Source: Candidatus Hermodarchaeum yapensis (lineage in GTDB: Archaea > Asgardarchaeota > Hermodarchaeia > Hermodarchaeales > Hermodarchaeaceae). From it: 31,742 nucleotides of DNA. Under the pieces are notes generated by a model. It was given only the letters and a program-made list of their open reading frames with translations. It was not told where the DNA came from and did no database searches. Below, piece by piece: positions 8,378 through 15,884 of the stretch. The stretch spans positions 1-31,742 of the forward strand of contig JAEOSK010000027.1 of the NCBI GenBank assembly GCA_016840405.1, written 5' to 3'. Position numbers and translations under genes: made by a program. Position 1 is the first letter of the stretch. Every line of letters begins with the position of its first letter.

Positions 8378-9562
8378 ATGCCGATGTCAGGACCTCAAGA
8401 ACTTGAAGACCCCCATATGATCTCCAGTGCCCATGAAGTCCACAAAGCCTTTCATATCTCGCGACGAGAAGTATATCTCGCAATTGCCCTTTTCATATTT
8501 TACCTTCTTTCACTCTTTGTGTTTCAGAATATCTTTATATTAATAATTGGCACCATAGCTTTAGCCCTCTGGCTCACCTTTCGTGCCTCCCACTTTGCGA
8601 TTGATGGAATCGAATCATTGGGTGCTTTTGCGGGTCTTAGTGCGTATTTTATTGGAGTCCTCTCTTCATTAGCATCCAATACACCAGAAGCCGTTGTAAG
8701 CTCGCTGACTGCCTGGCGAGGTTTTATCACACTCAATCCTGAGCTGGTCCTTATTGCTGTTCTAAGTGTAGTGATGGCAGCAGGATTCAACATCTTACTC
8801 CTGGGCTTTGTCGTTGTCATATCTGCCCGTAAAACCAGCGTCATTGATGTCCCTCGAGAAGTCATCGAAGATGACGCAGATTTAATCCGCTGGACTATTG
8901 TTGCGATGGGTCTTCTCTTTGCCTTTGGCATTCTTCACTACATCAATCAACTTATCCTTGGAGCCTCAATCACTCTCCAGTATCTTCCAGCAGTTGCAGG
9001 ATTTATGATGGTGATTTCTTATCTTCTATACGCAGTTTATGCAGTGAAAAAACCGATAAAGGAAGGGAGAATAATCCCTAAACCGCGTCATACTAAACGA
9101 AATTCCGCAATTTTGTCAGTTCTGGGATTTGTTGGAATTTTCATTGCCGGATATTTGCTTTCTGAAGCTGTTGAAATGGCCTTTGAGTTTGTTCCGTGGG
9201 CAAGCATTCCATATCTTGATGCTCAACGAATCGTGATAATGGCAATTCTCATCGGGGCTGCTGGCGCGCTTCCTGAACATGGCATTGCAGTCATTGCAGC
9301 AACTAAGGGGAAAGCAAGCATTGCGATAGGAAATACTTTGGGTGGAACCATACAAGTTCTGTTGCTCATTGTTGGTGGTGTATCGATTTTTCTTCCCCTT
9401 CCCTTAACCGCTGCCGTCCTTCTCCAATTTGCCACAGCAGCTGGCTCTTTATGGTTCTTGATACGGGCTATGACAGATGATCATAGGGTTGACATCTTTG
9501 AAGGCGCGATGATTCTCCTCATGCAAATGTTTGTCTTCGTCATCGTGTTGGTTCCCATTTAA
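8378..9562 (+). CDS. Ca2+:cation antiporter (CaCA, Na_Ca_ex) family membrane protein
   Basis: Two alpha-repeat-like motifs (ASNTPE ... GFN and AGALPE ... GNTLG) and about 11 hydrophobic helices. Confidence 0.8.
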   Translation: MPMSGPQELEDPHMISSAHEVHKAFHISRREVYLAIALFIFYLLSLFVFQNIFILIIGTIALALWLTFRASHFAIDGIESLGAFAGLSAYFIGVLSSLASNTPEAVVSSLTAWRGFITLNPELVLIAVLSVVMAAGFNILLLGFVVVISARKTSVIDVPREVIEDDADLIRWTIVAMGLLFAFGILHYINQLILGASITLQYLPAVAGFMMVISYLLYAVYAVKKPIKEGRIIPKPRHTKRNSAILSVLGFVGIFIAGYLLSEAVEMAFEFVPWASIPYLDAQRIVIMAILIGAAGALPEHGIAVIAATKGKASIAIGNTLGGTIQVLLLIVGGVSIFLPLPLTAAVLLQFATAAGSLWFLIRAMTDDHRVDIFEGAMILLMQMFVFVIVLVPI

Positions 9563-12885: not shown

Positions 12886-14132
12886 GGTGACAAATAAGTC
12901 AAAATAGGAGTAAACTGAATCTGATTCATCGAGGGTATAGGTACGAATTAAAACCAAATAATTGTCAGCGAACAATGTTGGCTAAACATGCGGGATGTGC
13001 ACGATTCGCCTATAACTGGGGATTGGAACAGCAGATTAAACGGTTGCAATCACAAAAGAGGAAAAAACAATTCACAAATGCAATTGAACAACATCGCGAA
13101 TTAGTGCGCCTGAAAAAACTGAATTTCCTTGATGTATGAAGTGTCCAAATGCGCGCCCCAGGAGGCGCTCCGCGATCTCGATAGAGCGTTTACAAACTTT
13201 TGGCGAAGAAGAAAAAAGAATCAAGTTGGTTTCCCTAAATTTAAGAAGAAAGGACGTAACGACAGCTTTCGATTATATGGGAGTATACGAGTTTTTGAAA
13301 AGGCGGTTCAGCTTCCACGTTTAGGTCGAATACGTGTGAAAGAAAAACCACAAATAAAGGGGCAGATACTCTCAGCCACAGTTTCACGAAGAGCTGATAG
13401 GTGGTTTGTCAGTTTTTGTACTGAAGAAGAGAAAATTACCTCATCACTTGCTGATGGTCCTAGGATTGGTGTAGATTTGGGTATCACGTCTTTAGCTACT
13501 CTGTCTGACGCAACTGTATTTGACAAACCTCGAGCATTAACAAAGAGGTTACGAAAACTCAAGCGCCTATCCCGGCAGTTATCATGTGAAGAAAAGGGTT
13601 CGAATAATCGTCGAAAAGCAATCCTCAGGTTAGCAAGGCTACATTGGCGCATCAGCAATATCCGATTAGATGTCATTCATAAGGTAACTAGCTATTTGGC
13701 TAAGAATCACAGCCAAATCATTATTGAAGACCTTTGTATTAGGGTCATAATGAAAAATAAACTAATCAGTCGTGCCATCGCAGATGTGGAATTATCTGAG
13801 CTTTGTCGGCAACTCGTATACAAAACAAAGTGGTACGGATTAAAATTAATTATTGCTCATCGATTTTTTCCATCATCTAAACGATGTTCACAATGTGGGA
13901 AAATTAAAGAAAGACTATCTTTGTCTGAGCGAATATTCATTTGCGAGTCATGTGGATTGCAGTTAAATCGAGACCTTAATGCTGCTAGAAATTTGGTCAC
14001 CGCCAGTTGGACGGAGACAGAAAACGCCTGCTATGAGGCGGGAGGTTACAGCTCTTCGGGGCAGTGTTCGTCGATGAAACAGGAACTGAACTTCAGCCAA
14101 ACATAAAGCGTTGAGTAAGTTTCAGGCAACGG
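12886..14132 (+). mobile_element. Non-autonomous IS607-like (IS200/IS605 superfamily) element carrying only tnpB
   Basis: TnpB motifs of the IS607-associated type; right end reads GAGTAAGTTT...AACGG; candidate left GG at 12886-12887 followed by short A-rich repeats; no tnpA. Left boundary is tentative. Confidence 0.65.
12915..14106 (+). pseudogene. tnpB: TnpB RNA-guided endonuclease, frameshifted near 13110-13132
   Basis: N-terminal frame 12915-13139 (HRGYRYELKP, HAGCARFAYNWGL, NAIEQHRELVRLKK) continues in another frame from 13132 (MYEVSKCAPQEALRDL, GVDLGI, IIIEDL, SSKRCSQCG, CESCG, RDLNAARN). Confidence 0.88.
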
Positions 14133-14152
14133 GAAAGCTTTTTGTGGGATGA
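13995..14152 (+). ncRNA. Putative TnpB omega/reRNA scaffold plus flanking guide
   Basis: Inferred from its position overlapping the tnpB 3' end and the element right end; 5' boundary approximate. Confidence 0.45.
14133..14146 (+). promoter_or_regulatory. Candidate BRE/TATA of the tRNA-His gene
   Basis: GAAAG followed by CTTTTTGT, about 45 nt upstream of the mature tRNA start. Confidence 0.4.
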
Positions 14153-14186
14153 TGTAGTTCAACCATTCTTTGTGCTGGGACACTGT

Positions 14187-14343
14187 GCCGGGATAATACT
14201 AGTTGGATAATCAACTGCATCCCGAAGGTGTAAACTGGTAATTGCCCAGGCGCAATGGTAGCATTGAAGCCTGTGGAGTCCCATTTAATGTAATGGGATA
14301 CAGAAAGCTTTAGGCCGGGGTTCGAATCCCTGTCCCGGCACCA
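14187..14343 (+). tRNA. tRNA-His(GUG) with three introns (14195-14226, 14234-14255, 14277-14305) and encoded CCA
   Basis: Exons 14187-14194, 14227-14233, 14256-14276 and 14306-14343 join to a 74-nt cloverleaf: GCCGGGA TG GTGT AATGGTA GCAT T GAAGC CTGTGGA GCTTT AGGC CGGGG TTCGAAT CCCTG TCCCGGC A CCA. Each junction lies in a BHB or relaxed BHB motif; a T5 tract follows. Confidence 0.9.
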
Positions 14344-14390: not shown

Positions 14391-15884
14391 TTGACAGCTT
14401 TGAAGCGCGGAAAAGAATTAGCGGTTGGTGGATTTCGAGATTTCTATCCAGAATTATACCAAAAAATCGACCGCATATTACGAGCCTTTCGAGAAATTCC
14501 TCAACTGTTTGGTTACATTGAGTACGAATGTCCAACCGTTGAGCCTTTACAATTGTTTCAGCTGAAATCAGGAACAGAATTAGTTGAAGAGACCTTCAAA
14601 GTAACGGACCGGAAAAATCGACAATTAGTCCTGCGACCCGAAACAACGCCTTCGCTTGCACGAATGCTCGCAGCACAACAACAATACTACCCACGTCCCA
14701 TCCGCTGGTATTCAGTTTCACGCGTATTTCGTGACGAAACCCAACAGCGAGGACGCGTTAAGGAATTCTGGCAACTCAATGTCGATTTACTTGGCACTGA
14801 AGACATAGGAGCAGATGCTGAAATCATCAACGTATTAGCCGCAATTATCCAAAGCCTCGGTTTTACTGCCGAAGATTTCGTAATCCGTATCAATGACCGC
14901 CGCTTAATCCAAAGCTATATCGAATCACTGGGCCTGATTAATTATCTTGAAATAATACGTATATTGGATCGTCGCGACAAATTCTTACAAGAAGCCATCA
15001 TCAGTCAACTCACAGAAGAGGGAACACCCGCAAAGAAAGCTGAGGAAATCGCACTCACTCTACGTCATTTCTTTGTAGGAAACCAACAAGAGCGACCAAA
15101 ACTGCCCCGTTCTAAACAGATCGATGAGATCATAGAGAATCTTCCCCAAATTCAACAAAATGCAATTATCGATGCTCTTGAAAACAGTGGGATCCCAAGA
15201 GAGGTTGCAGTTCAACTTACTGATTTTTCCTCGATAAAAGGCTCTCCAGCAGAGTTTCTAAAATTAATCGAGCAAGTTGAATTAACCAATGAAACCAGAC
15301 AGGCCCTTGAACCCCTACGACAGTTAGCAACACAACTCGACGATTTGGGAATAATTGCTTGCTGTGAATATGACGCTAGTATCGCACGAGGATTGGATTA
15401 CTATACAGGCGTTGTCTTTGAAGCATGGGACCGAGGAAAAGGATTACCACGCGCAATTGCGGGTGGTGGTCGCTATGATGACCTTGTGGGAATTCTTGAA
15501 GGCCAACCATTACCCGGCACCGGATTTGGATTTGGCGAAACCGTAATTCTTGAAATTGCAGAAGAGAAGGGACTCCTCCCACCACCTAAACCAGGTGCCG
15601 ATCTCTACATCGCACCTGTTTCAAAGAAACAATTAGGCGATTGCCGCCAGATTGCCACACAACTTCGTACAGCGGGGATTCGCACTCTTTTCAATGGTTT
15701 CACTTGGTCTCTCAAAAAATACCTTGACGATGCAAGTAAGCGACAAATTCCTTATGTAGCCATTGTAGGACCCCGAGAGCTCGCAAAGGATGCAGTTAAC
15801 CTTCGTAACATGAAAACTGGAAAAGAAAAAGAAGTGAAAATTGCTAGATTAGCAGACACTATCCGAACCGCTCTAAACCAGTAA
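14391..15884 (+). CDS. hisS: Histidine--tRNA ligase
   Basis: GFRDFYP, LRPETT, motif 2 FRDETQQRGRVKEFWQ, ARGLDYYTG, AGGGRYD, GTGFGFG and a C-terminal anticodon-binding domain. Confidence 0.96.
   Translation: MTALKRGKELAVGGFRDFYPELYQKIDRILRAFREIPQLFGYIEYECPTVEPLQLFQLKSGTELVEETFKVTDRKNRQLVLRPETTPSLARMLAAQQQYYPRPIRWYSVSRVFRDETQQRGRVKEFWQLNVDLLGTEDIGADAEIINVLAAIIQSLGFTAEDFVIRINDRRLIQSYIESLGLINYLEIIRILDRRDKFLQEAIISQLTEEGTPAKKAEEIALTLRHFFVGNQQERPKLPRSKQIDEIIENLPQIQQNAIIDALENSGIPREVAVQLTDFSSIKGSPAEFLKLIEQVELTNETRQALEPLRQLATQLDDLGIIACCEYDASIARGLDYYTGVVFEAWDRGKGLPRAIAGGGRYDDLVGILEGQPLPGTGFGFGETVILEIAEEKGLLPPPKPGADLYIAPVSKKQLGDCRQIATQLRTAGIRTLFNGFTWSLKKYLDDASKRQIPYVAIVGPRELAKDAVNLRNMKTGKEKEVKIARLADTIRTALNQ

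Follow-up and report, generated by a model that had tools for sequence, protein, structure and literature searches.

The E. coli rrn leader, which pairs with the 5' end of 16S rRNA, and the alternative helices of attenuator-type elements are examples of leaders whose transient pairing steers the folding of the RNA that follows. In some pre-tRNAs, pairing between the 5' leader and the 3' trailer extends the acceptor stem and modulates RNase P. Split and permuted tRNAs are known from Nanoarchaeum equitans, Caldivirga, Thermofilum pendens and Cyanidioschyzon; their leader and trailer pair with each other, and EndA cuts off the BHB so made. It is only for such tRNAs that leaders are discussed in PMC4090602 and PMC3218864. 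Non-canonical BHB introns, sorted into classes by Marck and Grosjean (2003), have been described in Thermoproteales (PMC4090602) and in a census of Asgard introns (10.64898/2026.10.13.758758), a text in which the word 'leader' occurs 0 times.

The locus analyzed here is a tRNA-His(GUG) gene in a window of 31,742 nucleotides, by which we mean the whole stretch of DNA under study. Its three introns all fit the hBHBh' or HBh' type, their removal gives a normal cloverleaf, and the genome encodes an RNase P RNA and two EndA-domain genes, on contigs C14 (43413-43667) and C36 (10730-10990), in the latter respect resembling lineages that cut non-canonical introns. What is new is not the introns but an accessory cis-element in the leader, a copy of the 5' acceptor strand of the gene itself. 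As in split and permuted tRNAs, pairing outside the tRNA would enable a processing structure; however, the leader here lies in cis, lacks a BHB, pairs with the 3' acceptor strand of the mature tRNA and is presumably removed by RNase P. Unlike a leader-trailer BHB, the leader helix is continuous and without bulges, and its 3' partner is followed by CCA and an oligo-T run. As with the rrn leader and attenuators, the leader would be transcribed and would for a time form a helix incompatible with the final one, to be displaced or removed later, but the competing helix in this case is an exact mimic of the acceptor stem that would serve intron excision. Pairing with the 3' side of the acceptor end is also found in leader-trailer stem extensions, whereas here the leader replaces the true 5' strand outright. 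The open texts of 10.64898/2026.10.13.758758, PMC4090602 and PMC3218864 contain no description of a leader copy of an acceptor strand, which is not proof of novelty. Our preferred reading, to which we assign a probability of about 60%, is that the leader copy stands in for the acceptor strand in cis and thereby allows the acceptor-proximal intron at position 8/9 to be spliced.

The host is an Asgard archaeon of the Hermod group, with a genome assembly of 2.7 Mb in 77 contigs that is 86% complete. Gene anatomy was established by reading the sequence against orthologs (Table 1), and the mature exon-1 junction follows from the orthologs that lack intron 1, whose uninterrupted sequence is GTGCCGGGATGGTGT. 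Exon 3 is 99% identical among orthologs, and tRNA-His and hisS are neighbors throughout the family. The gene was missed by ARAGORN, whether or not introns were allowed, and by Rfam at its gathering score, the Rfam tRNA model scoring only 20 bits; about half of the tRNA genes of this genome lie under standard detection thresholds. A leader copy is a simple annotation signature for hidden tRNA genes.

The acceptor end departs from the usual identity pair of tRNA-His, G-1:C73. No G-1 opposite C73 is encoded: T14186 occupies position -1 and A14340 is the discriminator, and 17 of 17 orthologs are alike in this. Thg1 (PF04446) had no match in the 86% complete genome. Pairing of U-1 with A73 and of G-2 with C74 are both possible.

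Table 1. Features of the tRNA-His(GUG) locus, in coordinates of the window.
Feature	Position	Strand	Remarks
tnpB and right end of IS200/IS605-type element	13129..14131	+	tnpB ORF 13129-14106
BRE/TATA promoter-like element AAAGCTTTTTGTG	14134..14146	+	matches motif of ordinary tRNA genes
Leader copy (putative stand-in 5' acceptor strand) GTGCTGGGACA	14172..14182	+	complementary to 14331-14341
Positions -2/-1 and exon 1	14185..14194	+	true 5' acceptor strand; also strand 1 of predicted intron-1 BHB
tRNA-His(GUG)	14187-14343	+	three predicted BHB introns: 8/9, D-loop, 37/38
Exon 1	14187-14194	+	tRNA positions 1-8, GCCGGGAT
Intron 1 (predicted)	14195-14226	+	32 nt, position 8/9, hBHBh' type
Exon 2	14227-14233	+	positions 9-15, GGTGTAA; invariant across orthologs
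Intron 2	14234-14255	+	22 nt, D-loop, HBh' type
Exon 3	14256-14276	+	positions 16-37; anticodon GTG 14273-75
Intron 3	14277-14305	+	29 nt, canonical 37/38 BHB
Exon 4	14306-14343	+	positions 38-76: T-arm, 3' acceptor strand, encoded CCA
3' acceptor strand TCCCGGC	14333-39	+	invariant in orthologs
Discriminator A73	14340	+	
Oligo-T run	14344-48	+	directly after exon 4
Histidyl-tRNA synthetase gene hisS	14391..15884	+	Pfam tRNA-synt_His, HGTP_anticodon

The original prediction held that 11 bp with a single G-U could form between the leader and the 3' end of the tRNA, and the sequence agrees: 14172-14182 (GTGCTGGGACA) pairs antiparallel with 14331-14341 (TGTCCCGGCAC) over 11 bp, with one wobble between T14176 and G14337. 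The two inner pairs (14181-82 with 14331-32) are in competition with the T-stem, whose nucleotides 64-65 they use, and the outermost two involve A73 and C74, so that the acceptor-like part of the helix comprises 7 to 9 bp. The leader copy is a direct near-repeat (9/11) of the true strand GTGCCGGGATA at 14185-14195, which is able to make the same 11 pairs. The 3' strand at 14333-41 can therefore take either 14172-80 or 14185-93 as its partner, while the true 5' strand can pair either with the 3' acceptor strand or with its partners in the BHB of intron 1. These helices share one strand and are mutually exclusive, as in a refolding switch. When we scanned 169 acceptor-like sites of the genome, made up of about 43 real tRNAs and spurious sites, no other showed at least nine pairs with at most one G-U.

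To assess conservation, we compared orthologous tRNA-His loci. The original prediction would have been refuted by orthologs with the same intron that lacked the complementarity; the copy is retained in 13 of 13 orthologs with intron 1, 12 from the same genus and one from a sister genus. Across nine pairs of the leader helix in the alignment of these 13, 99.1% of cells are paired. Seven pairs are invariant; in the other two a single strand varies, with U replacing C across from G in one and G or A facing U in the other. The exceptions are one U-U mismatch and one deletion. Since the 3' strand is invariant, compensatory covariation is not possible in this helix, and the evidence that argues for it consists of conservation and one-sided changes. 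Within the genus, identity is 0.894 in the leader copy and 0.891 in the promoter element (12 orthologs), 0.724 in the stretch between the two, 0.587 in intron 1 and 0.293 in the region upstream of the promoter. The leader copy is a real, conserved and non-random feature.

Three species of the sister genus, g2, lack intron 1, and each has one acceptor-strand copy only, at the same distance from the promoter as the leader copy elsewhere. In a HisRS tree they group as a single clade, whose sister is an intron-bearing species and which nests below the intron-bearing genus, with moderate support (86/71 and 91/88). The simplest history is one joint loss of intron 1 and the extra copy, and the joint disappearance constrains models of gain and loss of Asgard tRNA introns. 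The HisRS of one relative (L052) has a branch length of 3.56 in the tree, for which a frameshift or misframed cut is the likely cause; the tRNA comparison is unaffected by it.

Upstream of the promoter lies a mobile element whose tnpB product has Pfam OrfB_IS605 and Cas12f1-like TNB domains. Its right end abuts the BRE/TATA of tRNA-His within a few bases. Other genomic copies of the element align as far as about 14132-36, homology with orthologs starts at 14132, where homology with the element stops, and its 3' part recurs elsewhere in the genome in six or more diverged copies. The element is absent from the closest species, whose locus is 94% identical, and from the other orthologous loci. 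We rejected a link between it and the leader: its homology stops at about 14132, before the promoter, and orthologs free of the element share the same leader. It is context, outside the proposed mechanism.

A search for further tRNAs with introns near the acceptor stem, which the original prediction had called for, yielded a second case. Sites with T-arm, acceptor and CCA signatures were located throughout the genome, and copies of the 5' strand were then sought upstream of them. Among about 43 tRNA genes, an intron at 8/9 occurs only in tRNA-His, tRNA-Leu(UAA) (contig C36) and tRNA-Leu(CAA) (contig C77), and only in these three does the leader repeat the gene's own acceptor strand. The copies in the Leu genes, (T)GCGGGGG, match their own strand exactly and stand 41-43 nt upstream of the real one. 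The Leu acceptor strand is unrelated to that of His, and the His and Leu copies have no common motif. All 18 family genomes show the double GCGGGGG pattern, in most cases at both Leu paralogs, whose spacers have diverged while the copy is unchanged. Outside the family it was found in 12 of 381 other sampled genomes of the phylum, with no tRNA at any of the 11 loci examined.

Controls were negative. The roughly 40 other tRNA genes of the genome, many of which have introns in the D-loop, anticodon or T-loop, have no leader copy; nor do two tRNA-Leu genes with the same acceptor stem and no 8/9 intron. The same is true of 11 complete multi-intron tRNAs examined in three other Asgard families, none of them with an acceptor-proximal intron. 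The weak tRNA hits in those three families had no intron of that kind, and they serve as negative controls only. Co-occurrence of leader copies with 8/9 introns is thus strict in two unrelated tRNA families, although the independent events behind it are few, namely His, Leu and one loss.

These comparisons bear on whether the repeat could have arisen without any function. Short G+C-rich words do recur, and two ordinary tRNAs have 7-nt matches in their leaders, which is about the chance expectation. However, an 11-bp helix with one G-U is unique among the 169 sites, it is conserved in 13 species and the Leu genes of 18 genomes show the same feature; chance repetition is refuted by this conservation. 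The copy might instead be a neutral or slowly decaying remnant, with no processing role, of the DNA rearrangement from which the 8/9 intron arose; if the 5' end of the gene was duplicated, for instance, the old 5' strand may have stayed where it was relative to the promoter. The copy does occupy the position of the real 5' end in intron-less orthologs, intron and copy were lost jointly, and the route by which Asgard introns arrived is not known (10.64898/2026.10.13.758758). We nevertheless regard a relic as improbable: the copy is far better conserved than adjacent non-coding sequence in both the genus and the sister genus, the Leu copy is exact in all 18 family genomes and in both paralogs despite the divergence of their spacers, and a perfect competitor of the acceptor stem that was under no selection would be harmful and should decay. 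Nor does the layout fit target-site duplication by a mobile intron, as the intron lies outside the two repeats and not between them.

For the copy to act in the RNA it has to be transcribed. We learned a promoter motif from 34 ordinary tRNA genes of the genome, in which the start of the motif lies a median of 43.5 nt from the mature 5' end. At tRNA-His the motif is 40 nt from the copy and 53 nt from the real 5' end; at the Leu genes the corresponding distances are 42-44 nt and 83-87 nt. The distances to the copies are thus usual ones for a tRNA 5' end in this genome. Promoter spacing predicts a His transcription start at about 14166-14171, so that the His copy is likely, though not certain, to be transcribed. 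Contigs from one metatranscriptome mapped to part of hisS only, none of them over the tRNA. In principle the copy could act in DNA, as an initiator or other element near the promoter with a fortuitous likeness to the acceptor strand, with transcription starting at or after it, and the real His 5' end at 53 nt from the motif is still inside the range of ordinary tRNAs. The Leu genes make this very unlikely, because with the real 5' end 83-87 nt from the only conserved promoter motif the copy must be in the transcript if that motif is the promoter. Moreover, His and Leu have no common motif, and each copy matches its own tRNA.

Intron 1 is a predicted archaeal BHB tRNA intron at 8/9, with a central helix, two bulges of three nucleotides, flanking helices and a canonical tRNA restored by its removal. 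The central helix joins CGGG 14189-92 to CCCG 14221-24 (98.1% of cells paired in the 13 orthologs), the bulges are ATA 14193-95 and AAG 14225-27, and the outer helix, GTGC 14185-88 with GTGT 14228-31, is weak, its four pairs being one G-C and three G-U. Over the 13 orthologs, nine of the ten pairs of the inner hairpin show double (compensatory) changes, and most orthologs have one additional unpaired base after the first inner pair. The predicted junction, GCCGGGAT joined to GGTGT, is identical to the uninterrupted sequence of the three g2 species. As originally proposed, the motif would use the true 5' acceptor strand, but its extent is 14185-14192, and it does not begin at 14184.

Intron 2, found in all 17 orthologs, has a central helix of GTGT and GCGC, bulges AAA and AAT, and an inner helix CTGG/CCAG that is 100% paired; its BHB is identical in species without intron 1. 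Intron 3 is missing from three g2 orthologs, and in a fourth a different intron takes its place. That GTGT 14228-31 can enter three structures is borne out by the helices read from the sequence, which are mutually exclusive: the outer helix of the intron-1 BHB, the D-stem (with GCAT 14261-64) and, for intron 2, the central helix of its BHB (with GCGC 14250-53). The stronger claim, that the leader forces an order of intron 1, intron 2, acceptor formation and RNase P cleavage, is not supported. The first BHB has a weak outer helix, the BHB of intron 2 is unchanged where intron 1 is absent, and nothing fixes which of the two goes first.

Two other ways of cutting this region were considered and rejected. 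If the copy were the real exon 1 and a mini-intron of 13 nt lay between the repeats, only CCGG would fit as a central helix, which would consist of two copies of one word; neither an inner nor an outer helix would flank it, and the tRNA would lack U8. Cutting of a BHB at -1/+1 in place of RNase P finds no fitting helices in either the His or the Leu leaders.

To examine which helices are favored before and after splicing, we folded precursors and spliced forms. In the 176-nt His precursor, the helix between leader and 3' strand appears in both the MFE and the centroid structure (z = -5.1). In the RNAalifold structures of His, Leu(UAA) and Leu(CAA) alike, the 3' strand is the partner of the copy, as it is in the single-sequence fold of Leu(UAA). 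Under pairing constraints, the stand-in fold of the unspliced precursor beats the true acceptor stem by 2.9 to 8.5 kcal/mol in 13 of 13 species, and in leaderless unspliced RNAs the acceptor stem forms in all 13 and buries the BHB strand. We infer that the stand-in fold of the precursor forms in the cell. In the MFE structure of the window's own sequence, the true strand, once freed, is taken up by intron-2 sequence instead of its partner in the intron-1 BHB; in several orthologs the BHB stem appears in the constrained fold.

Folding thus agreed with the predicted leader helix before splicing, but not with a return to the acceptor stem afterwards. Once all introns are removed, the leader fold is still better by 1 to 3.4 kcal/mol, and by 7.4 in one species. 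A thermodynamic switch-back is absent from these 2D energies, which favor the leader fold at every stage, and a simple thermodynamic refolding switch is not evident. Since the leader helix is favored even after splicing, secondary structure alone does not explain its release, which has to come from tertiary folding, proteins or irreversible cutting by RNase P.

The same preference could be read as a lock that needs active release, with the copy masking the acceptor end until splicing is complete and so blocking an early RNase P cut at +1, use of the CCA end or aminoacylation. Pairing and conservation fit such a checkpoint equally well. What it leaves unexplained is that copies occur only with 8/9 introns, even though introns in the D-loop, anticodon and T-loop also need to be spliced first, and we consider it unlikely.

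The established features of these loci, namely complementarity, conservation, co-occurrence with 8/9 introns and the mutual exclusivity of the helices, lead us to favor a stand-in acceptor strand. The original claim that the leader holds the 3' strand so that intron 1 can fold agrees with every comparative test made, and the mechanism is plausible but unproven. The primary transcript would begin a few nucleotides before the spare 5' acceptor strand. In the precursor, the copy would pair with the 3' acceptor strand (positions 66-74) to make a stand-in acceptor helix, and the freed 5' strand could then engage both CCCG, at the 3' end of intron 1, and the exon-2 GTGT, forming the BHB that the splicing endonuclease needs for the cut at 8/9. 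In this way the leader copy would promote cutting of intron 1. How and when the strands exchange we infer as follows: after ligation, the genuine strand, now without a competing partner, would displace the copy on the 3' strand, and RNase P would then remove the leader.

An intron adjacent to the acceptor stem has a splice signal that needs a strand otherwise kept by the most stable helix of the tRNA, and a stand-in strand supplied by the leader would explain how such introns can exist. Stand-in strands may even form a general, undescribed class of cis-elements in archaeal pre-tRNAs that lets BHB introns sit at 8/9 and 10/11, with the stand-in fold a true intermediate that is cut by EndA, refolded and cut by RNase P. 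We hold this generalization tentatively and put its odds a little short of even.

Several further observations concern the Leu genes and introns elsewhere in the genome. The Leu leaders (C36 7294-7518, minus strand; C77 about 8780-9012, minus strand) contain conserved hairpins beside the acceptor copy, and a leader stretch, GACTAAGC, is predicted to pair with the D-arm sequence GCTTGGTC; this pairing shows one compensatory change, A-U to G-C, in the sister genus. The predicted structures suggest that the Leu leader may hold more than one strand of the tRNA. A second copy of the 3' two-thirds of tRNA-Leu(UAA) (C36 2713-2824, minus strand) is 91% identical and includes the 8/9 intron. With a degenerate 5' strand, GAAGGGG in place of GCGGGGG, and no leader copy, it is probably a pseudogene. 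Between the two Leu(UAA) copies on C36 lie 4.5 kb that encode an MFS transporter and an HTH regulator but no integrase. T-loop introns, at about positions 58-60, occur in several tRNA genes (C20 1312-1373, C3 64012-64082, C76 11351-11411, C68 10767-10839 and on C77), and tRNA-Leu(CAA) has four introns.
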